Source: an archaeon GW2011_AR15 (GTDB lineage Archaea > Nanobdellota > Nanobdellia > Woesearchaeales > GW2011-AR15). Taken from it: a stretch of DNA of 64,000 bases. The stretch is from assembly GCA_000830295.1 (NCBI GenBank), contig CP010425.1:35927-99926 (forward strand). Direction: 5' to 3'. The notes beneath the pieces are model-generated. The model was not told where the DNA came from. It saw only the letters and a program-made list of their open reading frames with translations, and ran no database searches. Each line of letters begins with the position of its first letter. Position 1 is the first letter of the stretch. Positions 4,574 through 64,000 of the stretch are shown here, in pieces. The position numbers and the translations under genes are program-made.

Positions 4574-4627
4574 CTATCAGCCCCCGATATAATAAAGAAA
4601 TAATAGAAGTATTTTTAAAAGTTGTTA

Positions 4628-4649
4628 TTGAAAATAAAGGCATTTTCAA
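4628..4649. promoter_or_regulatory. perfect palindrome TTGAAAAT-N6-ATTTTCAA upstream of the first RNR gene
   Basis: An 8-bp inverted repeat with a 6-bp spacer lies about 55-75 nt upstream of the nrdJ start at 4573. Confidence 0.3.
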
Positions 4650-4652
4650 TTC

Positions 4653-4690
4653 CGAAACCCGAATCATAAAATTGGTAAGTTCGGGTTTCG
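4653..4690 (-). terminator. perfect 11-bp-stem hairpin directly after the stop of the second RNR gene, followed by a U-rich tract in the transcript
   Basis: cgaaacccgaa at 4653-4663 and ttcgggtttcg at 4680-4690 are exact reverse complements with a 16-nt loop. The stop TAG (reverse strand) sits at 4691-4693. Confidence 0.45.
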
Positions 4691-6739: not shown

Positions 6740-6778
6740 CGTTCTCTTTAGTTTTTGTTATCCTTGAAATATACAAAC

Positions 6779-6826
6779 ACACAATATGTTGTGTCCCAAC
6801 ATATGAGAATCTACAATATGTTGTGT
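6779..6826. promoter_or_regulatory. tandem pair of NrdR-box-like 16-bp palindromes upstream of the second RNR gene
   Basis: ACACAATATGTTGTGT at 6779-6794 and CTACAATATGTTGTGT at 6811-6826 are 32 bp apart centre to centre. They match the acaCwAtATaTwGtgt NrdR consensus and abut a TATA-like GTATATTT next to the gene. Confidence 0.5.
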
Positions 6827-6901
6827 ATCATAATTAAGTAGGAAAATTAGTATTTAAACATTCCTACAAATGAAAATAGATAATGAAAAATATATTTTTA
6901 G

Positions 6902-7204
6902 TCATTTCTTTTTCCTGTGGCCTTGCTCAAGATGCTGCTTTATGGCATCCCTGAGAAGCTTTATCTCAAGCATATGCTCAGACTGCAGCATTGCAAGCTC
7001 CTCCTTCATGTTCTCTGATATCGCTGTCTGTATGACCACAAAGAGCAGCAGCATCCAGATGAACAGGGCTCCGAGCCTGACCCATGCAAGTATTGTCCCT
7101 GCCTGTTCTGCAAGGAATATGAGGTATAAGCCGATGAATATAAGCGCCATCCCTGCCGGAAGCAGCAGCTTCTCGAATAGATTTATTTTCCTGTTGCTAA
7201 ACAT
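6902..7204 (-). CDS. small membrane protein, unknown function
   Basis: 100-aa ORF with two hydrophobic helices and a charged C-terminus. Confidence 0.4.
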   Translation of the reverse strand: MFSNRKINLFEKLLLPAGMALIFIGLYLIFLAEQAGTILAWVRLGALFIWMLLLFVVIQTAISENMKEELAMLQSEHMLEIKLLRDAIKQHLEQGHRKKK

Positions 7205-7220
7205 TGATAACCACCCCTTT

Positions 7221-8099
7221 TTATCTGAACTGGACTGATGGGTTCAGGTTTATAAAATTTTCTTTCCCCATGCCAGAAAAAATAATGTCAAGGAATCCTT
7301 TCTTCTCTTCCAGCTCAAAAGCAGAGACTGTTATGTTATGCCTGGACGCTACAAAATCCAGCACATCCTTCCTTGTGCCCAGCTCATCAACCAGGCCGAG
7401 GTCTTTTGCTTCGCTTCCGAGGAAAATCTGGCCTGTTGCAAGCCTCCTTACGCTGATAACGCTCATGTTCCTGTTCTCTGCGACTTCCTTTATGAAGAAC
7501 TCATTCATCTTGTATATTATATCCTGGAATATCCTCCTCTCCTCTTCACTGGGCTCTTTGAAAGATGAGCCCATGTCCTTGAGCTCGCCTGAGACATACC
7601 TCTGGTAGGTTATGTTGTATTCCTCGAGGAATCCGGAAAAGTCAAGGTAGGAGCCTATCACTCCTATGCTTCCTGTCAATGACATCCTGTTTGCATACAC
7701 ATAGTCTGTCGAGCTCGCGACCCAGTATGCTGCGCTTGTTCCCATATCCCTTATCAGGGCGATTGTTGTCCTGTTGGCTGATTTTATCCTCTGGGCTATC
7801 TCATCAGCAGCAACCCCTGAGCCGCCCGGTGAGTTTATGTCAAATATTATCGCCTTTACACCCATGCCCTCTGCCTTGTCTATGGCTGCTATTACTGCCT
7901 GGCTGGAGATTGTGTCGCCTGTCAGGCCGCTGCTCTCCTCTACGCCTATGACTCCGTGTATCGGGATTATGGCAACATTACCTGTCCCAAGGCTCATATC
8001 AGGGCCGAACAGGAAGGATGTTGCAAAGCTTATAATCCAGAGTATCAAAAGTATCTTCAGGACCGGGAGTATCTTTTCCTTAAGGCCAGTTCCTATCAT
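7221..8099 (-). CDS. sppA: signal peptide peptidase SppA (ClpP-fold serine peptidase)
   Basis: N-terminal TM segment, then the SppA/ClpP-fold core (IIPIHGVIG, AIIFDINSPGGS, GTSAAYWVAS). The start is set at MIGTG, which overlaps the upstream stop in ATGA. Confidence 0.75.
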   Translation of the reverse strand: MIGTGLKEKILPVLKILLILWIISFATSFLFGPDMSLGTGNVAIIPIHGVIGVEESSGLTGDTISSQAVIAAIDKAEGMGVKAIIFDINSPGGSGVAADEIAQRIKSANRTTIALIRDMGTSAAYWVASSTDYVYANRMSLTGSIGVIGSYLDFSGFLEEYNITYQRYVSGELKDMGSSFKEPSEEERRIFQDIIYKMNEFFIKEVAENRNMSVISVRRLATGQIFLGSEAKDLGLVDELGTRKDVLDFVASRHNITVSAFELEEKKGFLDIIFSGMGKENFINLNPSVQFR

Positions 8100-39189: not shown

Positions 39190-39220
39190 TCAAGCACACA
39201 ATTAAAAAAAGTGGGCCTGA
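39190..39220. repeat. 31-bp direct repeat copy 2 (overlaps the genuine 3' end of tRNA-Ile)
   Basis: tcaagcacacaattaaaaaaagtgggcctga. It is 55 bp from copy 1. Confidence 0.7.
39204..39210 (-). terminator. oligo-T tract directly after tRNA-Ile
   Basis: T7 on the transcribed strand begins 2 nt after the discriminator base. Confidence 0.5.
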
Positions 39221-39315
39221 GCGGATTTGAACCGCCGACCAATGGCTTTCTTAGATAACATGTACCAATGGCGGTCATATAAGACCATCGCTCCACCAGG
39301 CTAAGCTACAGGCCC
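39212..39315 (-). tRNA. tRNA-Ile with anticodon UAU, containing a 30-nt canonical BHB intron (plus-strand 39248-39277) after position 37
   Basis: Folded by hand. Acceptor GGGCCTG/CAGGCCC; D-stem GCTT/GAGC; anticodon stem ATGGT/GCCAT; loop CTTATA|intron|A; T-arm GGCGG-TTCAAAT-CCGCT. Loop nt 32-35 (CTTA) pair perfectly with intron TAAG, giving 3-nt bulges at both splice sites. Confidence 0.65.
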
Positions 39316-49604: not shown

Positions 49605-50661
49605 GAAAGTCATAGGGAAATTCGAGGTTGAATACCTGCAGGTTCTTGATGAGGAAGGCAATGCTGATGAGGCCCTCATGCCGAAGCTGACAGGCAGGCA
49701 GATAAAAGAGCTCTATGAAAACATGATCCTTGTCAGGACTTTTGATGACAAGGCTTTCTCAATGCAGAGACAGGGGAGGATAGGCTCATACCTCCAGGTA
49801 AAGGGGCAGGAAGCAGCACAGGTGGGCTCTGTCTATGCCCTACAGGACAAGGACTGGCTGTTCCCTATGTACAGGAGCAGTGGGGCATTGCTTGCAAGGA
49901 AGCAGCCCATGCATCTTCTCTATCTTTACTGGGGCGGAGATGAACGCGGTTTGAAAAGTCCGGAGAATGTGAATAATTTTCCCATTGCAATACCTGTCGG
50001 GACGCAGATACCTCATGCAGTAGGTGCTGCCTGGGCATCAAATCTCCTTGGAAAAAAAGAAGTCTCGCTGGTATTCTTCGGAGAAGGCGCAACATCAAAG
50101 GCAGATTTCCACACTGCAATGAATTTTGCAGGAGTCTATCAGGTTCCGTGCATTCTTGTCTGCGAGAACAACCAGTGGGCAATTTCTGTGCCGAGAAAAA
50201 TACAGACGCATTCAGAGACAATAGCACAGAAGGGAATTGCATACGGGGTTAAGGGAATCCAGGTCGACGGGAACGATATTTTTGCAGTCTACAAAGCAGT
50301 AAAAGAGGCTGTTGATGATGCAAGAGCAGGCAAAGGCCCTGCATTAATAGAGTGCATGACCTACAGGATAGGGGACCACAGCACAAGCGATGACGCAAAA
50401 AAATACAGGGGCGAAAAAGAAGTCGAGGAGTGGGCGAAAAAAGACCCTGTGCTCAGGCTTGAGAGATATATGAAAAAGAAAAAGCTGCTTGATGAAGCGT
50501 ATAAGAAAAAAGTCCTTGAGAATGCAAAAGAGACTGTTGAGAAAGAAGTGAAGAAATATGAGGAGTATCCTGCGCCTGACAGGGAAGATATCTTCAAGTA
50601 CACATTTGCGGAGATGCCGCAGCAGCTGAAAGAGCAGTTTGAGGAGTTCAAGAATGGTTAG
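49597..50661 (+). CDS. pdhA: 2-oxoacid (pyruvate) dehydrogenase E1 alpha subunit
   Basis: TPP-binding GDG...N region and a phosphorylation-loop-like YRIGDHSTSDD. Confidence 0.8.
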   Translation: MVKKVIGKFEVEYLQVLDEEGNADEALMPKLTGRQIKELYENMILVRTFDDKAFSMQRQGRIGSYLQVKGQEAAQVGSVYALQDKDWLFPMYRSSGALLARKQPMHLLYLYWGGDERGLKSPENVNNFPIAIPVGTQIPHAVGAAWASNLLGKKEVSLVFFGEGATSKADFHTAMNFAGVYQVPCILVCENNQWAISVPRKIQTHSETIAQKGIAYGVKGIQVDGNDIFAVYKAVKEAVDDARAGKGPALIECMTYRIGDHSTSDDAKKYRGEKEVEEWAKKDPVLRLERYMKKKKLLDEAYKKKVLENAKETVEKEVKKYEEYPAPDREDIFKYTFAEMPQQLKEQFEEFKNG

Positions 50662-51625
50662 CATGAATAATGTAGAAGCAGTGAGATCCGCGCTTGACCA
50701 GGCGCTGAAATCTGATAAGAGTGTTGTTGTGCTTGGGGAAGATGTCGGAGTAAACGGCGGAGTCTTCAGGGCAACTGACGGGCTGCAGAAAAAATACGGA
50801 AAAGACAGGGTAATTGACACTCCGCTGAGCGAGGAAGGCATTGTGGGAATGGCAATAGGCCTGGCTGTCACCGGGGTAAAGCCTGTTGCAGAGATACAGT
50901 TCTCTGGATTTTTGCCTGCTGCATTTGACCAGATATTCAGCCATGCCGCAAGGATAAGGTCAAGGAGCAGGGGAAGGTTTACATGCCCGATGGTGATAAG
51001 GGCGCCTGCAGGCGGGGGAATACGGGCTCTTGAGCTTCACTGCGAAATGCCGGAAGCGCTGTTTGCGCATATCCCTGGGATAAAGGTTGTCTGCCCGAGT
51101 ACGCCTTATGACACAAAAGGCCTGCTGCTGGCTGCAATAAAAGACCCTGACCCTGTGATATTTTTAGAGCCTATGAGGATCTACAGGGCAGTAAAGCAGG
51201 ATGTCCCTGAAAAGGAATACACAATTCCGCTGGGAAAAGCCAATGTCATAAAAGAAGGAACTGACATCACAATAATAACCTGGGGCTCAATGGTGAAATA
51301 CACCCTTGATGCTGTTGCCGGGCTTGATGATGTTGATGCTGAGGTAATTGATCTGCGGACAATATATCCTTTTGATACTGAGGCGATAATAAAGAGCGTC
51401 GGGAAAACAGGCAGGGCGGTTGTCGTGCATGAGGCCCCGAAGACCTCCGGGTTCGGAGCTGAGATTGTGGCAACAATAAATGAGAAAGCTCTTGACTCCC
51501 TGGATGCGCCTGTGCTGAGAGTTACAGGCTATGACACTGCGCTTCCGTTTGCAAGGCTGGAGATGCAGTTCATACCGAGCAAAGAAAGGATTATAAAGGC
51601 AATTAACGAGGTTATGGATTATTAA
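50654..51625 (+). CDS. pdhB: 2-oxoacid dehydrogenase E1 beta subunit
   Basis: Transketolase-like pyrimidine-binding and C-terminal domains. Start taken at MVSMNN. Confidence 0.8.
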   Translation: MVSMNNVEAVRSALDQALKSDKSVVVLGEDVGVNGGVFRATDGLQKKYGKDRVIDTPLSEEGIVGMAIGLAVTGVKPVAEIQFSGFLPAAFDQIFSHAARIRSRSRGRFTCPMVIRAPAGGGIRALELHCEMPEALFAHIPGIKVVCPSTPYDTKGLLLAAIKDPDPVIFLEPMRIYRAVKQDVPEKEYTIPLGKANVIKEGTDITIITWGSMVKYTLDAVAGLDDVDAEVIDLRTIYPFDTEAIIKSVGKTGRAVVVHEAPKTSGFGAEIVATINEKALDSLDAPVLRVTGYDTALPFARLEMQFIPSKERIIKAINEVMDY

Positions 51626-51637
51626 TTGAAAAATAGA

Positions 51638-52846
51638 ATGGTATTTGATTTTAAGTTCCCGGATGTTGGAGAAGGCATTACTGAAGGGACTATTGTAAAG
51701 TGGAAAGTAAAAGCAGGCGATTCTGTCAAGGCTGATGAGCCTATTGCTGAAATCGAGACAGACAAGGCAATTGTTGATATCCCTACGCCAAAGGCCGGAG
51801 TAATCCTGAAAATCAATCACAGAGAGGGAGAAACAATAAAAGTCGGGGAGACCCTTGCAGTTATTGGCGAGAAGGGAGAGAAGGCAGGAGAAACAAAAGA
51901 AAAAAAAGAAGGCAGGGAAGATGAGCACTACACAGGCAGTGTCGTCGGCTTCCTTGAAGAGGCAAAGGATGAGTTTAAGCCAGGAAGAAGCTCCAAAAAA
52001 GAGTCGGAGTCTTCAGAGAAAAGAATAAGGGCCACCCCGAAAATAAGAATGCTTGCAAAAGAGCTCAATGTTGAGCTGAAAAATATTGTCCCGACAGGCC
52101 ACGGCGGAAGAATAAGTGAGGAAGACATCAGGAAGTCTGTTAAAAAAGCAGCTAAAAGAGAATATCACGGCAAGGTTACAAGGAGGGAACTGAAAGGGGT
52201 AAGAAAAACTATTGCAAAAAACCTTGTTGAAGCCCACCTGGCAACTGTTCCTGTAACCACAATGCATGACGCTGATGTAACAGGGCTCTGGGAAGCAAGG
52301 GAAAAAGAAAAAATAAGCGCAGAAAAGAAGGGAGTAAAGCTTACCTTCCTCCCATATATAATAAAAGCAGCAACTGAAGCGCTGAAAAAGCATCCTGAGA
52401 TAAACTCAACTCTTGAGGGTGATGAAATTGTGCTGAAAAACTACTATCATATAGGGTTTGCCGTTGATACTGATGACGGGCTTATAGTGCCTGTGGTAAA
52501 AGACGCTGACAAGAAATCCCTGATGGAACTTGCGAAAGAACTGGCAGAGCTGGGAGAAAAGGCAAGGGCAAGGAAGCTTGGGATAGATGAAATAAAAGGG
52601 GGTTCTTTCTCAATAACTAATTTAGGCTCTGTGGGAGTGAAATATTTTACGCCGGTAATTAATTATCCTGAAAGCGCCATACTCGGCCTGGGAAGCATCG
52701 GGAACATGCCGGTCGCATCAGAGAATGACATCAAAATAAGAAAAATACTCCCTCTTTCGCTTACATTCGATCACAGGGTAATAGACGGCGCGCAGGCGTC
52801 AAGGTTCATGCTGGATTTAATCAAAAATCTGGAAAGCATAAAATAG
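51638..52846 (+). CDS. dihydrolipoamide acyltransferase E2 (lipoyl domain, E3-binding domain, catalytic domain)
   Basis: Lipoyl-lysine context IETDKA, a PSBD segment, and the catalytic DHRVIDG motif. The track start at 51626 is TTG, so the ATG at 51638 is used. Confidence 0.8.
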   Translation: MVFDFKFPDVGEGITEGTIVKWKVKAGDSVKADEPIAEIETDKAIVDIPTPKAGVILKINHREGETIKVGETLAVIGEKGEKAGETKEKKEGREDEHYTGSVVGFLEEAKDEFKPGRSSKKESESSEKRIRATPKIRMLAKELNVELKNIVPTGHGGRISEEDIRKSVKKAAKREYHGKVTRRELKGVRKTIAKNLVEAHLATVPVTTMHDADVTGLWEAREKEKISAEKKGVKLTFLPYIIKAATEALKKHPEINSTLEGDEIVLKNYYHIGFAVDTDDGLIVPVVKDADKKSLMELAKELAELGEKARARKLGIDEIKGGSFSITNLGSVGVKYFTPVINYPESAILGLGSIGNMPVASENDIKIRKILPLSLTFDHRVIDGAQASRFMLDLIKNLESIK

Positions 52847-52861
52847 AGTAAATAAAAAACA

Positions 52862-53284
52862 TTGGGGGTGCAAAAAAAAATGGTAAACTGGTTATCTGTA
52901 CTAGGAACTGCATTAGCAGGCTTTTTGCTGGGATGGATTTGGTATGGCCCGTTGTTCGGAAAACAGTGGATGAAGCTGATGAAAATATCCAAGAAAGACA
53001 TGCAAAAAGCAAAGAAGAAAAGCATGGTTACACCGATGGTCGGCGGGTTCCTTGCTACGGTTGTTATGGCTTATGTGCTTGATACATTCGTTAGACTTGT
53101 GGCTGCCACAACTTTTGTTGAGGGAGCAATCCTCGGATTCTGGCTGTGGCTGGGGTTCGTGGCAACTGTTCTCCTGGGAAAAGTCCTGTGGGAGAACAAA
53201 TCATTCAGCCTCTACCTTATTGACTCGCTGCATTATCTTGCTGTGCTTGGGTTGATGGGCGGTCTATTGGCTGTCTGGATATAA
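52862..53284 (+). CDS. DUF1761-like membrane protein
   Basis: 140 aa with four TM helices. Confidence 0.35.
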   Translation: MGVQKKMVNWLSVLGTALAGFLLGWIWYGPLFGKQWMKLMKISKKDMQKAKKKSMVTPMVGGFLATVVMAYVLDTFVRLVAATTFVEGAILGFWLWLGFVATVLLGKVLWENKSFSLYLIDSLHYLAVLGLMGGLLAVWI

Positions 53285-53351
53285 TTCTTTTTTTATTTTT
53301 TATTAGTTAACTTTAAATATAGTTTAATTACTGGGTTGCTGGGGAAAACTT

Positions 53352-54206
53352 ATGGCAGAAAACAGGGTTGTTGTTATCGGCGGTTCCGGTGTGCATGACA
53401 GCCCCGGCTTCAAAGAGGCTGTATGGGAAACACTGGATTTGGGAACACCTTATGGCAGGATAGAATATCAGGAAAGAGAAGATGGTGTAGTCTTTATACC
53501 AAGGCATGGCCATAATGTGAAATATGCCCCCCATCTTACGCAGTATATTGAAAACAGCCTGGCAGCAGCCCATCTTGGTGATGTCGTTATAGCCACCAGC
53601 GCAGTAGGGACATACCATCCTGAAAAAATCAAAGTCAAAGGCCTGGTTATTCCTGATGACTATATAGACATGACAACAGGAAGGAAATCTGACCCTTATG
53701 GCGAGGGAATTACGGTCCATGCAAACCCAAGGCCTGCATTTACTGAAGAAGTCAGGAAAATTCTTCTTGAGAGCGGGAAGAAGCATTCGCATGCTTTTAA
53801 TGGAGTTACAGATGGCGGCACATACCTGACTATGGACGGATCGAGGTTCGGCACAAGAGCTGAAGGGAACATGAGGGCATATTATGCTGACCTTGCGGGA
53901 ATGACCTGCAATCCTGAAGCTGAGATAATGATGTATCTTGATATGCCTTATGCACTTGCTGCATTTGTTGTTGATGAGGATGTTGACGCTGACCACGAAC
54001 TGTCAACAATGGCTGTTATGAAAGAGCTTTCACAGCCTGATAAAGTCCCTGCTTTCATAGAGACTGCAATTGAGCTTGCAAAAGAAATGAAACTGCCTGA
54101 ACGTGACCCGAGAATTGCAACAGGAATAATAGAACAGGGTCTGGAAAGGATCGCCAATAAATACGCAAGACAAAGAGCAGGATATCTTATGCAGAAATAC
54201 AAGTAA
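53352..54206 (+). CDS. 5'-methylthioadenosine/purine nucleoside phosphorylase (PNP family 1)
   Basis: VVIGGSG, RHGHN and SAVG motifs of the MTAP/PNP family. Confidence 0.7.
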   Translation: MAENRVVVIGGSGVHDSPGFKEAVWETLDLGTPYGRIEYQEREDGVVFIPRHGHNVKYAPHLTQYIENSLAAAHLGDVVIATSAVGTYHPEKIKVKGLVIPDDYIDMTTGRKSDPYGEGITVHANPRPAFTEEVRKILLESGKKHSHAFNGVTDGGTYLTMDGSRFGTRAEGNMRAYYADLAGMTCNPEAEIMMYLDMPYALAAFVVDEDVDADHELSTMAVMKELSQPDKVPAFIETAIELAKEMKLPERDPRIATGIIEQGLERIANKYARQRAGYLMQKYK

Positions 54207-54950
54207 TTATTTCATGAAATTCCACTCTCTTGTGGAATATTTTTCTTCTACCAGCTGCCTTGCCCGCTTAATCTCCTCTTCAGCAAGCTCCCCGAAGCTG
54301 AATTCCTTCCCTTCTGTAAATCCCTTGAGCAGGGCATTATATGTATCTTCCCTCGTAACTTTTTTGTAATCTATCACTCTTGTAACCCTTTCTTCAACAG
54401 ACTTTATTATTTTATCGCGGATTTTCTCATCAGGAATTTTGAGAACAGTGAACATCCTCTTCACATCAACATCATATAATATTGTGCCGTGCTGCAGCAA
54501 TACGTTATTCCTCCTTGTCTGCGCATTGCCTGATATCTTCTTATTTCCGACAACAATATCATTTATAGGCACAAACTGCGCATCAATCCCTATATTTTTC
54601 AGCCCTTTGACCACCCAGCCGCATATTTCTTTATAGCTCTCGATTATATTTTTCGGGAACATTCCAACCGGACCAATTACGGAATAAGTTATCTCTCCGT
54701 CATGGGAATGATAGACTGCCCCGCCGCCTGTCCTTCTTCTCACTATGCTGATGCCAAGCTTCCTGCATTTTCTCGCGTCAACAACATCATCCATGCTCTG
54801 GAAATATCCTATGGAAACCGCACTCGGAAGCCATCTGTAGAATCTTATTGTCGGCTCTCCCCCTTCTGCAACTGATTCAGAGACTGCCTCATCTATCGCC
54901 ATATTCATGAAAGCATGGTCCATTTCCAGGGGTATGACTCTCCACTTCAT
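54207..54950 (-). CDS. lplA: lipoate-protein ligase A, catalytic (N-terminal) domain protein
   Basis: BPL/LPL catalytic motifs RRTGGGAVYH and KISGNAQ. Confidence 0.8.
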   Translation of the reverse strand: MKWRVIPLEMDHAFMNMAIDEAVSESVAEGGEPTIRFYRWLPSAVSIGYFQSMDDVVDARKCRKLGISIVRRRTGGGAVYHSHDGEITYSVIGPVGMFPKNIIESYKEICGWVVKGLKNIGIDAQFVPINDIVVGNKKISGNAQTRRNNVLLQHGTILYDVDVKRMFTVLKIPDEKIRDKIIKSVEERVTRVIDYKKVTREDTYNALLKGFTEGKEFSFGELAEEEIKRARQLVEEKYSTREWNFMK

Positions 54951-55219
54951 TTTTGATCAACTGCCTTTTTCAGCACTCTTGCTATTGCGGCCGCATCCAG
55001 GCCTATCAGCTGGTAGCCCTTTTCTGCTATGACTTTCTGCAGCTCTTCTGCAATCTCTTTTTCATCAAAATCCTTTTTTATGCCCGCCAGTCTTTTCTCT
55101 ATCTCTTTTATTGATTCTTCAGGGTGCGCAAAGAAATCGCCTGTAATATCAACTTTCTCTATTTTGTCACCGAAATCTACTTTTATAACTAGAAGTTTTC
55201 CGCCCTCAACTTTCTCCAT
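54947..55219 (-). CDS. lipoate-protein ligase C-terminal domain protein (LplB-like)
   Basis: A small acidic protein encoded directly upstream of, and overlapping, the LplA catalytic-domain gene. Confidence 0.5.
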   Translation of the reverse strand: MEKVEGGKLLVIKVDFGDKIEKVDITGDFFAHPEESIKEIEKRLAGIKKDFDEKEIAEELQKVIAEKGYQLIGLDAAAIARVLKKAVDQK

Positions 55220-55415
55220 TGCCTGAGTGTGCACAATAAATGAAAGTGATTCACTTATAAATATGTTTCCAAATACAAAATATCAATTTGGAAAATCTTA
55301 AATAGAAAATATCCTTACCCAGGCCTAAAAGGGGGTGGAATATGAGGCGAGCATATCGCTTTATAGTCAATAGTTTAGTTCTTAATAGTTCTTTTAATAG
55401 AGGGGGTAATCTGAA

Positions 55416-57524
55416 ATGAAAAAAATATTGTTTGTAGTGTTAGCTTTGATAATGATTGTTTCTGCAGCGGCTGTTCAGGATAATATTGAGAGAAAGGACG
55501 GCGGGATAAAGACTGAGAACAAGGATTTTGTCCTTGACTGGGACTTGGAAGTTACAGGCTACAGCCCGCACTCAGGGAAATTCATACTTGAAGGGACTGC
55601 GCTGAGAAGCAAGGAAACAGATAGGAAAGCAGATATTGCAATAATCAGTCCCGTCCCTCTGGTGTCGATGAGCAGCGCTGTTGTATGGGAAGATATTGAA
55701 GAAGTTTTAACTGAGGAGAAAATTTATCCCTGTGACGGTCAATACGGCTGGAATAATGAAGAACACACCCAGATTTATTGTGCAAGAACATACACAAGGT
55801 TAAATAATCAGACCGAGCAAATAGAGAACTATACTTCAACTTCAGTCATTGATGTTAACTCCGGAATATCTGTTACTGATTTGGGGGATTCAATTGCATG
55901 GAACAACACAAAAACAGTAAAAAGGATATCTGAGAATGTAATATCATCAAAAATATCTTCCATTGAACATAAGACAGATTATGGAAATTACGTCTACTAT
56001 GTAAAAAACAATACTTTCAAAGCAGATGAAGATTACAGGTTCAGGTTTGAGATTGATGTAGCTAAAGAGATGCTTCCTGTAAAATATACTGTTTGTATAG
56101 GTGATGCAGAAGCCAACATATATTATTTCTGCCTAGACCCTACAATTGTCGATGCAAGGACATGGACAACTGATGCTGACTTCACGAACGGAACAACACT
56201 TCTTAATTTGACTGCGGAGAATGATGATTTAAGGTTGGATATTGACAATGATGCTGCCTATTCAGATAGTCTAATTCATTATTATTCGTTTGATTCTAAT
56301 GCCAGTGATAGTGTTGGCAGTCTTGACGGAAGCGTGGATGGAGCAACCAGCACTACAGCCAAGAACAATAATGGGTACTCCTTTGATGGAACTAATGATA
56401 GAATAACTTATGATGGTGGCAGTAGATTTTATGATGATTCTGGCGATTTTTCAGTTTCTTATTGGGTATACATAGATTCTGATGGAACAGGAGTCCAAAA
56501 GCACATTTCAGCTCTTCAATGTGACTCTAATGCGGGAATGGCATATTACTATACTCATACAGGAGACATATATCACGTTCAGATGAATAATGTAGGAGAC
56601 ATTTTAAGTGATAGTGCATTAACAGAGGATGCATGGACACATATTGTCTTTACAAGGAATGTCTCAGGGACAATCCAGAACGCACTATACATAAATGGGG
56701 TATCTCAAACTTTAAGTGCTTCAGAACAAACCTACGACCCGATTTCCGGTGGTAGTTCATATACTAATGTTATAGGTGCACAACAGAGTGATTGCTTTTC
56801 ATATGTTCAGTTTACAAAAGGGGATATTGACGAAATTGCTTTCTGGAACAGGTCTTTGACAGAAGAAGAGGTAGTATCTCTCAATAATTCCCATTTCTAC
56901 TCTCCAGGGAGTTCAGAAACATTCTCACAGGGATTATACAGCGATGTTCAAGGTTGGTATCCTCAGAATGGATCAAAGCTAACAAGTGTTGATGTGCAAA
57001 CTGTGCTCGCTGTTGATAGCTCTATCTTATTTAAATATAACAGCACTAATGCTTCACTGGACAGTTCTGAGTGGATAAATCTTACTACTAATGGAACTAA
57101 CATAATCAGTTTAGATCTGTCTAATGACCAGCCAATCTACTATCAGTTCAAGCTAATAGGGCCTGTTTCAACACCAAGTGTAACTTCATATACTCTTCAG
57201 GAGACGATATATTCTGAGTCAGGAGCCAACAATTTTATTGATTTGGGTATACAACAGAGCTCAGCATGGCCTGAAGCGAATGTGTATAATGGCCAACAAG
57301 TTTACCTGAGAAACCTCAATAATGACCAAATATTAGCAACCGTAGACAGAGTTGTGGTGTATGGGAATAAAAGATGGATTATCAACTATGCACTACCAAA
57401 TGAATCTCTTGTGGGTTTGACTTTCAACATAACTCCGGTTGTTTATGTTCTTGATATGGCAAACCTGTCTTCGACAGAGCTAACCACAACAGTAAAAAAT
57501 CTCATAGACGCAACCATTAACTAA
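55416..57524 (+). CDS. secreted LamG/concanavalin-A-like lectin domain protein, N-glycosylation-sequon rich
   Basis: Signal peptide. LamG-like core (YSFDGTNDRITYDGG...FSVSYWVYID...AFWNRSLTEEEV). Many N-x-S/T sequons. Confidence 0.6.
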   Translation: MKKILFVVLALIMIVSAAAVQDNIERKDGGIKTENKDFVLDWDLEVTGYSPHSGKFILEGTALRSKETDRKADIAIISPVPLVSMSSAVVWEDIEEVLTEEKIYPCDGQYGWNNEEHTQIYCARTYTRLNNQTEQIENYTSTSVIDVNSGISVTDLGDSIAWNNTKTVKRISENVISSKISSIEHKTDYGNYVYYVKNNTFKADEDYRFRFEIDVAKEMLPVKYTVCIGDAEANIYYFCLDPTIVDARTWTTDADFTNGTTLLNLTAENDDLRLDIDNDAAYSDSLIHYYSFDSNASDSVGSLDGSVDGATSTTAKNNNGYSFDGTNDRITYDGGSRFYDDSGDFSVSYWVYIDSDGTGVQKHISALQCDSNAGMAYYYTHTGDIYHVQMNNVGDILSDSALTEDAWTHIVFTRNVSGTIQNALYINGVSQTLSASEQTYDPISGGSSYTNVIGAQQSDCFSYVQFTKGDIDEIAFWNRSLTEEEVVSLNNSHFYSPGSSETFSQGLYSDVQGWYPQNGSKLTSVDVQTVLAVDSSILFKYNSTNASLDSSEWINLTTNGTNIISLDLSNDQPIYYQFKLIGPVSTPSVTSYTLQETIYSESGANNFIDLGIQQSSAWPEANVYNGQQVYLRNLNNDQILATVDRVVVYGNKRWIINYALPNESLVGLTFNITPVVYVLDMANLSSTELTTTVKNLIDATIN

Positions 57525-57534
57525 AGGAGGAAAC

Positions 57535-60500
57535 ATGAAGAAAACTAGTTTCCTCCTGCTTTTTGTATTTTTATTAGTGATTAGTGTGAGCTATGCGGCT
57601 GATACGTACAAGCCTTACATACACAAAGCCAATCTTCCTGAACACCCTAAAATAATCCTGTACGGCCAGTACAGGACCAGCCTGTTTCCTGGGGCAGCCA
57701 CTTATTCTTACGGCATTGAAGTTCCTAGAGGAACAAACGGGCTGCAGCCTCTGGTTTTTGCCAGCTACAACAGCCAGTCTGCATCACAAAGGCCCGGGAT
57801 ACTTGGAAGCGGCTGGGCAGAAAGCAGCATATGGACGATTCCTGAGGATTTCATAAACAGCTCAGGAGACACAGGCATCAGGGTTATAGATATTAATGGA
57901 GATGGTCTGCCTGATATCCTGCAGGGCGCAGCCAGTACTAAAAAAGCATGGCTCAACAATGCAAGCGGCTGGGAAAATTATGATGCAGTGTGGCAGCCGC
58001 CGACCTCTTTTATAGACGGAAACGGGAAAGACGAGGGAACAAGGTTTATAGATGCCAATCTTGACGGGCTGGTTGATATCATAAAGCAGGATGATTCAGC
58101 ATGGCTCAACAATGGCTCAGGCTGGCAGGCTACTGATGGCTGGAAATCGCCTGCAGATTTCATTGTCAGTAATGAAAACCTTGGCAGGAGCATCGCAGAT
58201 GTCAACGGAGACGGGTTTGCCGATATAATCATTTCAACTTCAGGAGGGAATACAACATGGATTAAGAATTCAACATATCCTCAAATGCTGAAAAACATAG
58301 AGAATGAATATGGCGGGATTACAAATATAAGCTATGCCAGCTCAACACAGTTCAATAATTCAGAAAATGTGACTTCCCAGCTTGGCTTTAATATTTATGT
58401 TGTTTCCAATGTAACAACAGCAAACGGGCTTTCGGATGATTTTAACTTTGCTACTTCAACATCTTATAATTATTCTCTTGGAAAATACAATTACGGAAAC
58501 TCTGAGTTCAGGGGTTTCGGAGTTTCTAAAGAGATAATGCCGTCAAAGATTGTCAGCCATTATTTCCATCAAGATAATCCTAGAAGGAGCAAGGAGTTTA
58601 AGACTCAGATATATGATACGAATTTAAGCATCTTTTCAAAAAGCGAGAAAGAATATGCGGTTGTGTTTTCTGATGGTGTTTATAATATAAGTCTTGATTC
58701 TTCTGCTGAATATCTCTATGATGGTTCTAATTCTCCTGTAATTACAAATAAAAGCTATACCTATGACTGGTACGGCAACCTGCTTTATTTAGAAGATCAA
58801 GGAGATGTTTCTGTTGCCGAAGATGAGAGATATTTCAACTATAGCTATGGTTTTGACAAGCAAAACTGGATAATGGATAGGGCTGCGAGAGAAACTATCT
58901 ATGATGATGAATTAGAGAAAGTAAGCGAGACAAAATACTATTATGATAATTTGGGCCTGGAAGGAGTGAGCGGCTATGGCAGACTGACTAAAACAGAAAG
59001 ATGGGATTCAGGCGGAGATAATGTGTTTACTTACTTTAGTTATGATGGTTTTGGGAATGTGATTAAGAAAACAGATAGTTTAGGGAACAGCTATAAGTTT
59101 TCGTACGACAGCACGCACACCTATCCTGTTACAGAGATAAATCCCCTGGGGCATATTACCACAAGGGTTTTTGATTTACGGACAGGGAATGTTTTGTCTT
59201 TCACACAGAATGATATTACCGCAAGCTTTGTTTATGATGCTCATGGAAGAATAGCTAAAGAGGTCATGCCTTTTGACACGAATTTCTCTCCGACAAAAGA
59301 GTATGAGTATAGCTTTGATGGGGCGGCTCCTGAGAAGGTAAAGGTTAGTATGAAAACAACAGCTAACAGGACAGACCGCATGTCCTATTTCTATGACGGG
59401 TTTGCCAATCTTATTCAGGTCAAGTCAGAGGTTGAAGATGGCCGGGAGATTGTCAAGAATATCTTCTATGATTCTGAATACAGGGTTGAGAGTGAGCAGA
59501 ACCTTTATTTTGCTGATTATTCTTTAGAGCTAAGTCCTGCGGACAATGAAAGCAATTATGTTTTCTATAACTATGATGCTTTAGATAGAGTTGTTTCTGT
59601 AACTAATCCTGACGGGACTTCTAAGACTGTCAGCTTTGAAAAGTACAATATAAGCTCTTATGATGAAAACGGGAACAGGCATGATTACCTATTGGATGCG
59701 TTCGGCAGGATTGCTGAGGTCCACGAGTATAACACAAATGATGTCGGCCTGCAGAAAGTCTATAACACAACCTATGAATATGACTCCAATGACAATCTGG
59801 TTAGAATTACAGATGAGGAAGGCAATGAGTTTTTGTTCTTCTATGATTCGCTGTCGAGGAAAACAGCAATGGATGACCCTGATCTGGGCAGCTGGAGTTA
59901 TGGCTATGACAAGAATTCAAACCTGATCAGCCAGACAGATGCAAAGAATAATACTATCAGACTTGGCTATGATGCCCTGAACAGGGTAACAGAAAAAAAC
60001 AGCTCAGACGTTAACATTACTTTCAGCTATGACGGGGCTTACTCCGGTGTGCTGACAAATATGAGTATGAATGATATCAATTTCAGCTTTGAATATGATG
60101 ATAGGTTAAGACTTATAGAGATGATCATGCTGGCAGATGACCAGTCTTTTACAACTGAATTTATCTATGATTCCCAAAACAGGCTTATCTCAAAAGTTGG
60201 ATTAGGAGAACTGGATTTTATATTCAACAGGCAAGGCAAAGTAAGGAAAATCCCGGGATTTGTTACAGATTCTTCTTATAATGCCTTTGGCAGTATTTTG
60301 AATAGAACTTATGGCAATGGCCTGATACAGCAGTTCAGTTATGATGAGGAGAATAACAGGCTTACAAACATCTATATTTCAGGAGTCCAGAACTTGACTT
60401 ATGATTATGATTCTGTAGAAAACATTATCTCCATACTTGACCCTGTGAATAATAGAAACCACTATCTTGGCTATGATGGATTAAACAGGCTGATCAATGC

Positions 60501-62001
60501 CACAATAGGAGATGATGTCTACAAGTATTCTTACAACCCCTTAGGAAACATGATGAAGATAGTGCATAACAACGAAAGCAAGAAATTCGTTTACAATGGC
60601 GATCAGGCTCACGCCCCATCCCAGATAATCGAAGGGGAAGCTGGAGTGGACGTCTATAACCCAAGGGAGATAGACACAGGCAGGAAATCCCGATTAACTG
60701 AATTCTGGTTATTGAATGACAAAAACACAAGCATTCTGGCCAACATATCTGTCTGGTTTGATGATAATAAGAATTTCACGAATAATTCCATTACTCTCGA
60801 CAGCAACATTTGGTTCCTTGTTGAGAACAACTACAGCTATGGCAGGGATTACAGCGTCAATATAACAGCAGATTCAGAGAACATATCAGACAGCCAGCTA
60901 TACAGTATAAAATTCGGCACACGGGCAAAATCCCTTAAGGTTATAGATCCAAATGTCTCAGTCAAGACATTTGAGTTCATTATCGAGAATGATGTCTCTG
61001 ATAAGGTCTATAACGTAAGCTGGAACTGCTCTAATGACATAGACACGATATATTCGACTGATTTGGCAGGAAATCAAAGCCTGTATGACTATCTCCAGCA
61101 CAATTACACTCTGCCTGGAGAAAAGACATTTACATGCACAGTCACAAGCAATGACGGGACAGAATCAGAGACAGTAGAATTTACTTTAAACGGCCTGGAG
61201 ATAGAAGATTATGACATCCTGCTGACAAACATAAGCAGGAGAGTTGTTGCCTATGATGTTGTGAACTATTTCACGCCGATAGAGGCCAATATTTCAATGG
61301 AGGACGAGACTGCCTCATTCTCCAGGATAACAACTCTTGAATCAGACGAGGATGTGATGGTTTTCGTCGAGACAAACTATTCCTCAGACGGCTCAAAGAC
61401 ATTCAGCATTGATGTCTCGTCAAGCAATTATTCTAATTCGTACAGCGAATCATTTGATTTAGAGAGTGTCTCAATAGAGAATTATGAGAGGGTAAATCAA
61501 AATACCGGTCAGATATTAGTGTTCGGCATCAGGAACAAATGGTATTCTGGGGTGGTAAACTGGTCAGTGTCAGAGCCCAGCATACAGAACCTTAGCACTT
61601 TGAACACAGGCGAATTATTATTGGTTGCAATTGAGCATAATTATACTCAGGGCAGCAAAACACCGAGAATAACTGCTGTTGTGTCTTCTGTTCAGGACGA
61701 GGTAACAGATTATTTCTCTGTTACTCCTCTTGAAATCAGCAGTTTAGCAGTGATATCAGAAGACCGTTCCAAAGCAGTTTCCGAGCTGGTTGTGCTTAAT
61801 AAGCTGGATGACAGCCAGCAGTTTTCATGGAGACTGGATACGGAGATAGAGAACATAACCTCCTCCTTAATCAATCTCACTGGCAATGTTTTCATCTATA
61901 TTGGCAGCTATTACAACACAGAAGGCATCTACAGGCAGGTTGCAGTGATAAACAGCAGCAGCTACGATGACAATGAGAGCATCGGGGTGGTTATCTCGTG
62001 A
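57535..62001 (+). CDS. RHS/YD-repeat protein (N-terminal FG-GAP/integrin-like repeats, central YD-repeat shell, C-terminal sequon-rich beta-domains), no RHS core
   Basis: Signal peptide. Repeated DINGDGLPDI, DANLDGLVDI and DVNGDGFADI units. More than 15 YD repeats (GYDALNRVTEK, YEYDSNDNLVRITDEEGN and similar). The protein ends without a DPxGL core. Confidence 0.8.
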   Translation: MKKTSFLLLFVFLLVISVSYAADTYKPYIHKANLPEHPKIILYGQYRTSLFPGAATYSYGIEVPRGTNGLQPLVFASYNSQSASQRPGILGSGWAESSIWTIPEDFINSSGDTGIRVIDINGDGLPDILQGAASTKKAWLNNASGWENYDAVWQPPTSFIDGNGKDEGTRFIDANLDGLVDIIKQDDSAWLNNGSGWQATDGWKSPADFIVSNENLGRSIADVNGDGFADIIISTSGGNTTWIKNSTYPQMLKNIENEYGGITNISYASSTQFNNSENVTSQLGFNIYVVSNVTTANGLSDDFNFATSTSYNYSLGKYNYGNSEFRGFGVSKEIMPSKIVSHYFHQDNPRRSKEFKTQIYDTNLSIFSKSEKEYAVVFSDGVYNISLDSSAEYLYDGSNSPVITNKSYTYDWYGNLLYLEDQGDVSVAEDERYFNYSYGFDKQNWIMDRAARETIYDDELEKVSETKYYYDNLGLEGVSGYGRLTKTERWDSGGDNVFTYFSYDGFGNVIKKTDSLGNSYKFSYDSTHTYPVTEINPLGHITTRVFDLRTGNVLSFTQNDITASFVYDAHGRIAKEVMPFDTNFSPTKEYEYSFDGAAPEKVKVSMKTTANRTDRMSYFYDGFANLIQVKSEVEDGREIVKNIFYDSEYRVESEQNLYFADYSLELSPADNESNYVFYNYDALDRVVSVTNPDGTSKTVSFEKYNISSYDENGNRHDYLLDAFGRIAEVHEYNTNDVGLQKVYNTTYEYDSNDNLVRITDEEGNEFLFFYDSLSRKTAMDDPDLGSWSYGYDKNSNLISQTDAKNNTIRLGYDALNRVTEKNSSDVNITFSYDGAYSGVLTNMSMNDINFSFEYDDRLRLIEMIMLADDQSFTTEFIYDSQNRLISKVGLGELDFIFNRQGKVRKIPGFVTDSSYNAFGSILNRTYGNGLIQQFSYDEENNRLTNIYISGVQNLTYDYDSVENIISILDPVNNRNHYLGYDGLNRLINATIGDDVYKYSYNPLGNMMKIVHNNESKKFVYNGDQAHAPSQIIEGEAGVDVYNPREIDTGRKSRLTEFWLLNDKNTSILANISVWFDDNKNFTNNSITLDSNIWFLVENNYSYGRDYSVNITADSENISDSQLYSIKFGTRAKSLKVIDPNVSVKTFEFIIENDVSDKVYNVSWNCSNDIDTIYSTDLAGNQSLYDYLQHNYTLPGEKTFTCTVTSNDGTESETVEFTLNGLEIEDYDILLTNISRRVVAYDVVNYFTPIEANISMEDETASFSRITTLESDEDVMVFVETNYSSDGSKTFSIDVSSSNYSNSYSESFDLESVSIENYERVNQNTGQILVFGIRNKWYSGVVNWSVSEPSIQNLSTLNTGELLLVAIEHNYTQGSKTPRITAVVSSVQDEVTDYFSVTPLEISSLAVISEDRSKAVSELVVLNKLDDSQQFSWRLDTEIENITSSLINLTGNVFIYIGSYYNTEGIYRQVAVINSSSYDDNESIGVVIS

Positions 62002-63290
62002 GAACCGCCAGATATATAAAGAGAATTGCCCTGTTCTTCATCATGCTTATTGCTCTTCAATCTGTTGTTTTTGCTGGAACATTAAATTTAGAATATGACG
62101 CTAATGGCAATTTAGTTAGCGGAGACGGCCTTTTCAGGGAGTATAACTCACTGAACCAGTTATGGAGAGTGTATAATGGCTCAAATTCCTCTGGTGATTT
62201 ATTGCAGGAATACACATATCATCCTACAGAAGAGAGAGCCCTTATAAAGAAAACATACAATAATTCTGTTCTGGTTGAGAGAGCCTATTACGTTGATGAA
62301 AACTTTGTCAGGATCATAAATCTATCTGGAACTTTCGATTTTACGTATGTGTATCATAACGGACAACAGATAGCACAGATACTGCCTTCAGGAGATAAAG
62401 AATTCATCCACGCAGACCATATCGGCTCTTCCAGTGTTGTAACTAATGAAGCCGGTCAAGTTATTGAGAATACTACGTATGCTCCTTTTGGCTCAATTGT
62501 CTCAGGAGGAGAAGAGACGAGATATGATTACGAGAATAAGGAATATGATGAAACAATAGGCACTTACGACTTCCATTTCAGGCAGTACAACCCAGAGTTC
62601 GGGATATTCATGCAGCCGGACACGCTCATACAGAATGTCTATGACCCGCAGTCTCTAAATAGATATGCGTTTGAGAGGAATAATCCGTATAACAGGGTTG
62701 ATCCGACAGGTCATTTTGAACTAGTTTCTGGTACTGTTTTTGTTGGGGCTCTTGCAGTAGCATCTATAGCAGCATTCATTGCATGGTCGAGTCCCATTAT
62801 TGGACCTAGTATTGATTGGTATAAGTCATCAAGACAGGTTCTTCAAGCAAAAGCCACGGAGAATAAAGCTAAATCTCTTTATGATTTGGGAGAAAAATGG
62901 TATCAATACTATGAGGATGATACTCCAGAAAACTTTAAGAAAGCACTTCTAGAAACAGCTGGTTTTGCTGTAGATGAGATAATTAGTAGTGGATTACAAA
63001 GAACAGCAGGTAAAGTCTTTTCAGATTATTACGAGGCTAATCAAGGCATGGGAGGGATAACAATAAATGTTTTAAATAATATACTTGATTGGAATAATCA
63101 AGCCAATGAAATAATTGGTATCTCATCATCAGAAAAAGGTTCAAAAGCATTACTTCGCTCAAGAAGAAGTGGAGGATATAGTCTAGTAGAAAGTAATGCC
63201 AATGGAGAAACGAATACTTATACAGGTAATATCTATGACATTAATGGTGAAAAAAGATTTATTGGAATAAGACCAGTCAGTAGAGACTGA
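61998..63290 (+). CDS. RHS repeat-associated core plus C-terminal polymorphic toxin domain
   Basis: Additional YD repeats, then an RHS core hallmark (FRQYNPEFGIFMQPD...NRYAFERNNPYNRVDPTGH) and about 190 aa of unrelated C-terminal sequence. It starts at a GTG that overlaps the upstream stop. Confidence 0.7.
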   Translation: MRTARYIKRIALFFIMLIALQSVVFAGTLNLEYDANGNLVSGDGLFREYNSLNQLWRVYNGSNSSGDLLQEYTYHPTEERALIKKTYNNSVLVERAYYVDENFVRIINLSGTFDFTYVYHNGQQIAQILPSGDKEFIHADHIGSSSVVTNEAGQVIENTTYAPFGSIVSGGEETRYDYENKEYDETIGTYDFHFRQYNPEFGIFMQPDTLIQNVYDPQSLNRYAFERNNPYNRVDPTGHFELVSGTVFVGALAVASIAAFIAWSSPIIGPSIDWYKSSRQVLQAKATENKAKSLYDLGEKWYQYYEDDTPENFKKALLETAGFAVDEIISSGLQRTAGKVFSDYYEANQGMGGITINVLNNILDWNNQANEIIGISSSEKGSKALLRSRRSGGYSLVESNANGETNTYTGNIYDINGEKRFIGIRPVSRD

Positions 63291-63328
63291 GACACATATT
63301 TAAATAGAAAAACATCCTAATAGCATAA

Positions 63329-63778
63329 ATGGTATTTTTTATCCAACAAAACATTGAAGCCATACTGCTTTATGTAGGTCTTTTCTCACTGCAAATTAGT
63401 TTTTTAATAACAAGTATTCTTGGTTGGAAAGTATATAAAAACAAAACTAAACTAGTACACAAAAAGAAACTAAATCACGATGTTGCTGAGGATAATTTTC
63501 TTCTAGTTTTCTATATTTTAACAATATTACTGCCAATATTTTTTACTTATGTAATTTTTTCTCAAAATACCTATTTAGGTTTCATTAATGTGTTCATATT
63601 ATTCATATACTCAGTTGGAGTACATAGATTATCGATTTCAGAATTTGAAAAAATAATTTATTCAAGAAGACTAATAAACCCAAAATTTAAAAAAAATATT
63701 TATAATTTAATTTTTAGACCATACATATATTTCGGCATAGCATTTTTTTGTTTAATAATAAACCTAATAATTAGATAA
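63329..63778 (+). CDS. candidate immunity protein (polytopic membrane protein) downstream of toxin tip
   Basis: 149 aa with four TM helices, very AT-rich codon usage, sitting in the canonical immunity position. Confidence 0.45.
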   Translation: MVFFIQQNIEAILLYVGLFSLQISFLITSILGWKVYKNKTKLVHKKKLNHDVAEDNFLLVFYILTILLPIFFTYVIFSQNTYLGFINVFILFIYSVGVHRLSISEFEKIIYSRRLINPKFKKNIYNLIFRPYIYFGIAFFCLIINLIIR

Positions 63779-63779
63779 A

Positions 63780-64000
63780 ATGACAAACACAAAAACATTG
63801 AAAGTGTTTTATTTAGGGTTAACATTAATTGTATTTATCATTCTAACTATCTCTTTAATAATTAATATTAGTATCCCCTTTATTGGGTGGGTTTTTGGAT
63901 TGTCTGGTATAGGACTCTCAATCTTCCTATTTTTTTATATTGATTCAACTAAGAAAATCAACAAGGACACAAATCAAATTTTTCATATTCTAGAAGAAAA
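63780..64000 (+). CDS. second small membrane protein, partial (runs off window end)
   Basis: The ATG at 63780 opens a hydrophobic ORF (MTNTKTLKVFYLGLTLIVFIILT...) that reaches the window edge. It lies in the AT-rich island. Confidence 0.3.
   Translation, partial: MTNTKTLKVFYLGLTLIVFIILTISLIINISIPFIGWVFGLSGIGLSIFLFFYIDSTKKINKDTNQIFHILEE

Follow-up and report, generated by a model that had tools for sequence, protein, structure and literature searches.

A putative polymorphic toxin and immunity island of a two-gene, TcB-like RHS type in the archaeon GW2011_AR15

This article concerns five genes at the end of a 64,000-nucleotide stretch of the genome of the archaeon GW2011_AR15 (GenBank assembly GCA_000830295.1, contig CP010425.1, positions 35,927 to 99,926), which we refer to as the window. 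The organism has been classed as Woesearchaeota (PMC11537232). The five open reading frames (ORFs), ORF1 to ORF5, are co-directional, with intergenic spacings of 10, -4, 38 and 1 nucleotides (nt), and their products look like the parts of a polymorphic toxin of the RHS family: a secreted LamG-domain protein, a long shell protein, a shorter protein made of an RHS-associated core and a variable tip, and two small membrane proteins (Table 1). An earlier note on this DNA, made by a model from the letters alone, had drawn the five genes head-to-tail, and all of them lie where it placed them, on the forward strand. ORF2 is identical to the protein recorded as QT06_C0001G0127 of GW2011_AR15. The locus is also present in two further assemblies (loci L001 and L002). 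No other copy was found elsewhere in the window, and a search of a plasmid collection returned only distant bacterial RHS proteins, at less than 32% identity.

Table 1. Coordinates, in the window, of the genes of the island and of the features within them. Lengths are in amino acids (aa); GC is the fraction of G+C.
Feature	Position (nt)	Strand	Remarks
ORF1	55416-57524	+	702 aa; secreted LamG partner
ORF2	57535-62001	+	1488 aa; TcB-like
ORF2, deletion junction	57816-57827	+	missing 1149 bp, in frame
ORF2, FG-GAP propeller remnant	57889-58254	+
ORF2, TcdB_toxin_midN	58174-58542	+
ORF2, YD/RHS shell	58546-60525	+
ORF2, five Ig-like domains	60526-61998	+	~90 aa each
ORF3	61998-63290	+	430 aa; GTG start
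ORF3, conserved part	61998-62714	+	signal peptide, last YD hairpins, RHS-associated core
ORF3, DPTGH, predicted self-cleavage site	62700-62714	+	residues 235-239
Tip 1 (C-terminal domain of ORF3)	62715-63290	+	191 aa; variable; GC 0.351
ORF4	63329-63778	+	149 aa; four hydrophobic segments; GC 0.231
ORF5	63780-64000	+	73 of 149 aa; cut by window end

ORF1 begins in the manner of a signal peptide and ORF2 with a signal peptide, each a charged n-region followed by a hydrophobic stretch, and neither protein has a membrane anchor of its own. A LamG_3 domain occupies residues 324-486 of ORF1 (nt 56385-56873; E=3.7e-18), so the secreted LamG protein of the earlier note is real. LamG is not, however, the part of this partner that is conserved. 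It was detected in three of ten ORF1-like upstream partners, and also in locus L080. What recurs is the C-terminal ~100 aa (nt ~57213-57521), found immediately 5′ of ORF2-like genes in 15 or more loci. Among solved structures ORF1 has no relative. Both proteins are dense in N-x-S/T sequons, as had been noticed: ORF1 has 18 against a shuffle mean of 10.2 (standard deviation (SD) 2.8), and ORF2 has 51 against 23.7 (SD 4.1). At 2.6 and 3.4 per 100 aa, both exceed the composition-matched shuffle about twofold, and the 21 other ORFs of the window (0.33 per 100 aa) by a factor of 8-10.

ORF2 matches FG-GAP, TcdB_toxin_midN (E=9e-21), RHS_repeat (E=1e-35) and YD_repeat_2x (E=3e-20). The earlier note had called it a 1488-aa FG-GAP and YD-repeat protein, and those domains were named correctly; its kinship with the TcB subunits of Tc toxins, and the signal peptide of ORF3 described below, had been overlooked. 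The N-terminal part of ORF2 matches TcdB1 and YenB by sequence, and the 1871-aa form of the protein has SpvB, the FG-GAP propeller, TcdB_toxin_midN and the RHS shell, all present. A structure model of residues 290-1488 (predicted local distance difference test (pLDDT) 88.8; predicted template modelling score (pTM) 0.76) superposes 540-636 residues on Rhs shells at 3.7-4.0 Å, with BC structures among its top fold matches. The C-terminal 490 aa are five tandem repeats of ~90 aa each (hhalign self-comparison, probability 99.9%), immunoglobulin-like (Ig-like) domains of PKD/CARDB-like type with two invariant cysteines. The extreme C-terminus (…GVV[IV]x), which abuts the overlapping start of ORF3, is conserved. 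Two other assignments for ORF2 were tried and dropped. Foldseek returned matches to whole BC cocoons (TMq 0.53), as if the C-terminal 490 aa were cocoon wall; the five tandem repeats rule this out, and profile similarity to the RHS region has a probability below 2% (hhalign). A BLAST hint (E=5e-4) that ORF2 has a degenerate RHS core of its own came down, in hhalign, to a shared YD motif only (probability 19%).

The length of ORF2 deserves its own account. It is 1488 aa in the window and in DUFY01, as against 1871 aa in JAGVXU01; the form in L001 has 1871 aa, with the extra DNA at L001 4681-5806. The window form lacks residues 95-473 of the longer one (379 aa; 1149 bp, in frame), and with them most of SpvB and three propeller blades. 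Two copies of GGAAGCGGCTGG flank the deletion, which reflects either genuine variation in the population or a collapse of the repeats during assembly. The long form is kept in all relatives, and with ORF2 so shortened the locus may be impaired in GW2011_AR15. One could go further and picture a decaying locus in which toxin delivery has been lost and selection acts only on the immunity genes. Besides the missing domains, such a picture could draw on two features from the DNA beyond the window: a downstream copy of the 3′ part of ORF2, broken up into two ORFs (122 and 379 aa), and a third cassette that has no start codon. We consider decay improbable. The deletion keeps the frame, no damage is seen in the remaining reading frames, the signal peptides or the catalytic residues, a sister assembly has the gene at full length, which leaves room for a population variant or an assembly collapse, and broken orphans are normal in Rhs arrays.

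ORF3 starts with a signal peptide (residues 1-27; family consensus LPxxFA|xEL), which again has a charged n-region before its hydrophobic stretch. Its Rhs_assc_core spans residues 161-239 (TIGR03696, E=4e-16) and is followed by 191 aa, as expected from the earlier description of an RHS core ending in DPTGH with an unrelated domain of ~190 aa behind it. Together the conserved residues amount to the last ~210 aa of an RHS cocoon, complete with an autoprotease motif formed by R195, D208 and D235. Among 117-120 relatives, R195 and D208 never vary, while D235 and G238 are conserved in 90% or more; their counterparts in SGS1 form the motif RxYDPxxGRFxxxDP…DPxG. The same motif is altered in the cleavage-deficient TccC3-D651A, Tse15 D1369N/D1391N and Tse5-D1141A (according to the titles of their Protein Data Bank (PDB) entries), and from its sequence ORF3 is predicted to cut itself at DPTGH. 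An AlphaFold2 model of ORF3 is confident over residues 1-210 (pLDDT >90) and superposes only on the final ~190-213 residues of the teneurin, type VI secretion system (T6SS) Rhs, SGS1 and TcC cocoons. Sequence alignment to one Rhs chain, 8qja, places the two proteins in register: ORF2 residues 1051-1391 align with 1271-1614 of that chain and ORF3 residues 134-237 with 1771-1877. By these alignments, the wall of ORF2 ends ~260 residues before the canonical end of the core, and the 212-aa RHS part of ORF3 fits the gap.

What follows the core is another matter. A search of 5.8 billion proteins found several hundred relatives of ORF3, mostly of 380-470 aa, which are 50-65% identical to it over only the first 50-65% of the query. 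Column conservation runs at 0.6-0.84 through residue 239, then drops to 0.05-0.2, and the tips of 112 family members fall into 82 clusters, almost none of them in Pfam. The suspicion that the C-terminal domain is a variable tip and not a structural part of RHS is thus upheld. The tips that do carry known domains have Colicin_D (E=6e-18), DUF6883 or an alpha/beta hydrolase, and tip 2 of this same island, which lies beyond the window, matches the CdiA-type chain 8ey4 (E=6e-11). A hydrophobic segment resembling a membrane helix opens 59 of the 112 tips (53%); the other 47% have none. In some family members, a LamG domain of ~200 aa is inserted within the RHS-associated core itself, in the loop between '…YEGKEHD' and 'DFHFRxY…' (L080 13646-15601 and 16072-18021; P0010, P0044, P0101), which puts the binder in the toxin-carrying protein and not in a separate ORF1.

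Tip 1 itself has, at residues 243-264 (nt 62724-62789), a hydrophobic helix of small-xxx-small pattern; a helical region and a small beta-sheet come after it. It has no match in Pfam, NCBIfam or PDB sequences. A word-indexed search of the 5.8 billion proteins gave no homologue, a negative to be read cautiously, since the parent protein, P0001, was not returned either. The exhaustive HMMER search of 1.84 billion representatives is firmer: it gave three matches, and the two inspected were Ig-like/PAS repeat proteins and spurious. The single weak relative is the tip of P0034 (E=1e-7). With pLDDT at 40-65 in the AlphaFold2 model of the tip, a fold search is not meaningful. The domain after DPTGH, which the earlier note had hoped to see classified, therefore defied every method used. 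By analogy with Tse5, tip 1 may act on membranes, which we rate at slightly below even odds.

Teneurins lead the fold matches of ORF3 and mosquito SGS1 is its best sequence match, with an RHS core that likewise stands directly before membrane helices. Should we then be thinking of adhesion or self-recognition, and not of toxins at all? In that case ORF3 would sit in the membrane as a type I protein, with the helix at 243-264 as its anchor and a variable tail in the cytoplasm, and would tether ORF2 to the cell. The want of an anchor in ORF1 and ORF2 would be explained. Against this stand the 47% of tips that have no hydrophobic segment, the bona fide toxin domains at the same position, a small ORF that seems to co-vary with a tip, and the invariance of the autoprotease residues, which would sever the anchor. 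We regard a non-toxic role as very unlikely.

The two small ORFs lie in strikingly AT-rich DNA. GC over 63291-64000 is 0.241, compared with a mean of 0.441 (SD 0.034) in 700-bp windows, and only the last five such windows of the 64 kb fall below 0.33. The AT-richness noticed earlier in the last ~700 bp is borne out, and the composition of the window is strongly non-uniform. The term AT-rich island suits tip 1 and the small ORFs, to which the strong dip is limited; it does not suit ORF1-ORF3, which at 0.38-0.41 are only modestly AT-richer than the rest of the window (0.448). That both small ORFs encode polytopic membrane proteins was also correct, full-length ORF5 (149 aa; L001 11783-12232) having three hydrophobic segments. 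As candidate immunity genes, the role the earlier note gave them, the two fare differently. In another metagenome, P0034, the tip-1-like toxin, is followed directly by a 143-aa membrane protein that is an ORF5 homologue (E=1e-9). L036 and L079 carry one same sequence; with L036 a repeat, this co-variation counts as one independent replicate. ORF5 is probably the immunity protein for tip 1, judging by these sequences. For ORF4, a 149-codon ORF would arise by chance in DNA of 24% GC with a probability of ~1e-6 (from base composition). Among the fetched loci it has one weak relative (L068, E=1.5e-4), and neither a linked relative nor other support was found there. ORF4 and ORF5 were considered as paralogues, and no homology was found. 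ORF4 is possibly a second or orphan immunity gene.

The earlier note took the locus as far as position 64000, where the window ends; the island goes on for ~5 kb more. In L001 and L002, the order past that point is the complete ORF5, a diverged and broken copy of the 3′ third of ORF2, a second RHS-core/tip gene (ORF3′, 446 aa) with a 133-aa soluble ORF, and a third cassette (ORF3′′), 5′-truncated and without start codon or signal peptide, with a 74-aa membrane ORF. A ferredoxin gene comes last. The orphan tip and immunity cassettes that the note proposed to look for in the genome thus exist, two of them, just outside the window. GC drops to 0.20-0.29 at every small ORF of the island. Two tandem units, with a period of 3967 bp, give a gap-free alignment as far as the DPTGH codon, with nucleotide identity of 52-93%; beyond it, identity is at background level. 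In relatives, cassette arrays reach up to six copies. From the sequences, this is very probably a toxin and immunity locus.

How the pieces work together is best approached through the neighbourhoods of related genes, which we counted in the 35 loci whose sequence reaches 8 kb or more upstream. In 18 of them, the C-terminal part of ORF1 is followed by full-length ORF2, ORF3 and then more full or 5′-truncated ORF3 modules. The GTG start of ORF3 overlaps the stop of ORF2 by 4 nt in the window, and the junction has the same 4-nt overlap in 12 of the 17 resolvable cases, with 8 nt in two more. ORF2-type genes picked independently of ORF3 were followed in three cases out of three by an overlapping ORF3-type gene and small ORFs. 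Orphan modules often have a 3′ fragment of ORF2, with no signal peptide, alongside ORF3. In a minority (L018 at 2812-7515, L015 and L076), the two are fused in a single chain that has no Ig-like region. The 1567-aa protein of L018 consists of ORF2 (16-1216), ORF3 (27-259) and a tip. Because the join falls at a YD motif common to ORF2 (…YDKNSNL…) and ORF3 (…YDANGNL…), the sequences suggest that split and fused forms interconvert by recombination.

The remaining 17 of the 35 loci give our main rival explanation its footing. There, ORF3-like genes are paired with small ORFs and no ORF2 lies within 10 kb. Perhaps ORF3-type proteins are secreted, stand-alone mini-toxins, their RHS piece being no more than a module for release by self-cleavage and a handle for recombination. 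ORF2 would then be a toxin-less RHS/Ig surface protein, or else a recombination acceptor that becomes a full toxin once a cassette is fused to it. ORF3 does bring a start codon of its own, its signal peptide is conserved, the fused chain of L018 is what recombination at the shared YD motif would be expected to yield, and some members join toxin and LamG binder in one chain. Yet a 210-aa fragment of a cocoon leaves the edge of its sheet open, and 53% of the family have hydrophobic tips, which such a fragment cannot enclose. The overlap between ORF2 and ORF3 is tightly conserved, 3′ parts of ORF2 accompany ORF3 in orphan modules, and by their register on 8qja the two proteins are complementary, not redundant. 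We think the stand-alone explanation rather unlikely, if the strongest of the alternatives.

We prefer to interpret the locus as an island of polymorphic toxin and immunity genes that belongs to the TcdB/TcaC-RHS class, with ORF2 and ORF3 joined in a cocoon like the BC cocoon of Tc toxins. We put the probability of this at roughly 0.7. That the cocoon is built in two pieces is a narrower claim, on which the odds seem to us even. Several things weigh against the interpretation. In GW2011_AR15, ORF2 has lost most of SpvB and three blades; about half of the loci counted make do without a nearby ORF2; in the fused form ORF3 takes the place of ORF2 residues 1217-1871 and is not added to them; tip 1 has no recognisable toxin fold and a poor model; the co-variation of ORF5 is a single replicate and ORF4 found no support among the fetched loci. 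ORF2 and ORF3 also each have their own signal peptide. With both halves carrying one, assembly of the cocoon would have to be extracellular, in contrast to Tc toxins.

The steps past the domain assignments are inferred, and we would put them together as follows. ORF1, ORF2 and ORF3 would be exported separately by Sec and N-glycosylated. ORF2 would form most of the RHS cocoon, its wall ~260 residues short, followed by the five Ig-like domains as a stalk. ORF3, translationally coupled to ORF2, would give the missing terminal hairpins and the aspartyl-protease plug, and would cut itself after DPTGH, leaving the 191-aa tip shielded in the cavity. Binding to the target cell would fall to ORF1 and to the Ig-like and propeller parts of ORF2. 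Tip 1, hydrophobic helix first, might then enter the target membrane; other tips of the family would act as nucleases. The producer would be protected by the membrane protein ORF5, perhaps also by ORF4, and downstream cassettes could be swapped in by recombination within the conserved DNA of the ORF2 3′ part and the ORF3 core.

Who carries such genes? The earlier note had called Rhs-type contact-dependent toxins rare in archaea, a view now outdated for DPANN: 453 confirmed stretches in species-representative genomes encode relatives of ORF3. Of 76 ORF3-type loci that were kept, 74 are titled archaea, the exceptions being one Gracilibacteria and one Nitrospinota. DPANN or related nano-sized lineages (Woese-, Nano-, Pace- and Aenigmatarchaeota, Bilamarchaeaceae) account for 50 of the 76. 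Another 24 come from co-assembly metagenome-assembled genomes titled 'uncultured Methanosarcinales archaeon', an unconfirmed label and perhaps a placeholder. Taken at face value, it would extend the family beyond DPANN. The proteins of these loci are as near to the query as those of named Woesearchaeota.

A family so nearly confined to DPANN with reduced genomes (the source genome is on a 1.16-Mb contig) invites a different thought about its purpose. An episymbiont might use the device on its host, attaching, inserting membrane-active effectors and opening the host envelope for nutrients or lipids, with the small membrane proteins guarding its own membrane. Hydrophobic starts are found in over half of the tips, and nanohaloarchaeal SPEARE, with LamG and a BC-toxin-like region, has been proposed to open the host membrane (PMC6642349). 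The mechanism overlaps that of a toxin and immunity island; what sets the two apart is the target and the purpose. Antagonism at strain level, however, has as its signature just such hypervariable tips, orphan arrays and small cognate ORFs, here putatively cognate (Zhang 2012, PMC3482391), and nuclease tips (Colicin D, the CdiA-CT fold) kill and do not feed. Host interaction as the main purpose strikes us as unlikely.

It remains to set the island, read as a split toxin, beside the systems it resembles. Closest in several respects are the Tc toxins (Photorhabdus TcdB2-TccC3, Yersinia YenB-YenC). ORF2 shares the domain order of TcB (SpvB, propeller, TcdB_toxin_midN, RHS shell); as in Tc toxins, the cocoon would be divided between two adjacent genes, the second carrying an aspartyl-protease core and a hypervariable toxin, here a putative one. 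The differences are several. ORF1, at 702 aa, does not match TcA, and no large TcA-like gene was found in the 64-kb window or the related loci examined. Tc subunits assemble in the producer's cytoplasm and are not known to have Sec signal peptides; ORF1, ORF2 and ORF3 all have signal peptides of Sec type. The split falls ~210 aa before the end of the core here, and TcC chains have 660-675 residues, on ~200 of which ORF3 superposes. ORF2, in addition, ends in five Ig-like domains, arrays of immunity-like cassettes follow, and the organism is an archaeon. Because it has no TcA, Sec-exported subunits and another split point, the locus is not a Tc toxin.

With the classical Rhs and WapA toxins (Tse5, RhsA and RhsP of the T6SS; Sec-dependent WapA of Gram-positive bacteria), the island shares the YD shell, the RHS-associated core, DPxG self-cleavage (here predicted), a variable toxin domain at the C-terminus (here putative) and an immunity gene after it (here a candidate), and 5′-truncated orphan modules with core DNA. 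Those toxins are single polypeptides with the whole shell, whereas here shell and core are mostly two secreted proteins, and many cassettes are complete genes with their own signal peptide. Compared with the T6SS Rhs proteins, there are no PAAR, VgrG or other T6SS elements. In Tse5, an Rhs shell carries and chaperones an integral-membrane, pore-forming toxin tip (PMC10684867). Tips that open with a hydrophobic segment, as 59 of the 112 do, would be cargo of just this type, and we count this in favour of the two-piece cocoon. The TcdB/TcaC class was defined by a signal peptide, SpvB, an integrin-like beta-propeller and RHS repeats (Zhang 2012, PMC3482391), and all of these are found here. The same survey reported the class in Euryarchaeota and described stalked RHS toxins with toxin and immunity cassettes in Methanosarcina acetivorans (PMC3482391). 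It found such systems in only ~15 archaeal genomes, none of them DPANN, which were then unsequenced, and did not describe a split, secreted mini-core form.

SPEARE of the Nanohaloarchaeota (Hamm et al. 2019, PMC6642349) is alike by its description, a DPANN surface protein with LamG and a region modelled on a BC cocoon. It differs in being a single giant of 3,000-8,500 aa that includes a protease and, in the cytoplasm, a restriction-enzyme domain, and that has neither polymorphic tips nor immunity cassettes (PMC6642349). SGS1 resembles ORF3 in that hydrophobic helices follow its core directly, as in tip 1. SGS1 and the teneurins are eukaryotic single chains without cassettes, and teneurins are adhesion receptors, not toxins. 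Of CdiA/CdiB, the TPS domain, FHA repeats, VENN motif and CdiB transporter are absent from all the ORFs; the toxin fold of tip 2 is the only thing shared.

Archaeal RHS polymorphic toxins beyond Methanosarcina were reportedly predicted by Makarova et al. in 2019 (mBio 10:e00715-19), who may list related loci. Leaving that work aside, we found no description in the literature of the split form, a ~420-aa core/tip protein with a signal peptide coupled to a TcB-like protein ending in Ig-like domains, nor of its abundance across DPANN.

The surroundings of the island are unremarkable. Upstream, at 50639-55234, lie genes for 2-oxoacid dehydrogenase E1-beta and E2, a DUF1761 protein and a PNP_UDP_1 phosphorylase, with a lipoate-protein ligase gene on the opposite strand. 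These neighbours are ordinary metabolism with no mobile-element genes, so there is no obvious integration signature upstream. At the end of a related toxin array on another DPANN contig, there is an IS110-family transposase (L081 17082-18221). Elsewhere in the window, Rfam places a tRNA of 104 nt, presumably intron-containing, at 39212-39315 on the reverse strand (54 bits); ARAGORN reported zero tRNAs in the window.

For all their small genomes, of about 1 Mb, and their dependence on other cells, many DPANN archaea keep up to six toxin cassettes. RHS polymorphic toxins are well known, and the two-gene form is common in DPANN archaea. No archaeal polymorphic toxin has been experimentally tested so far (PMC8416519). 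The ORF3 family is defined and widespread, its autoprotease site can be mutated, and one candidate toxin/immunity pair is directly testable. The 82 tip clusters among 112 proteins are a pool of unexplored effector domains. The architecture also hints at a way for a Tc-like cocoon to function with neither TcA nor a contractile injector. A bolder proposal, which we hold to be less likely than not, is this: DPANN archaea at large might possess a toxin-delivery machine of their own, a two-protein RHS cocoon exported by Sec and built outside the cell, with a small variable adhesin in place of TcA or the T6SS, which would deliver membrane-active and nuclease effectors into neighbours, possibly even into their own host.

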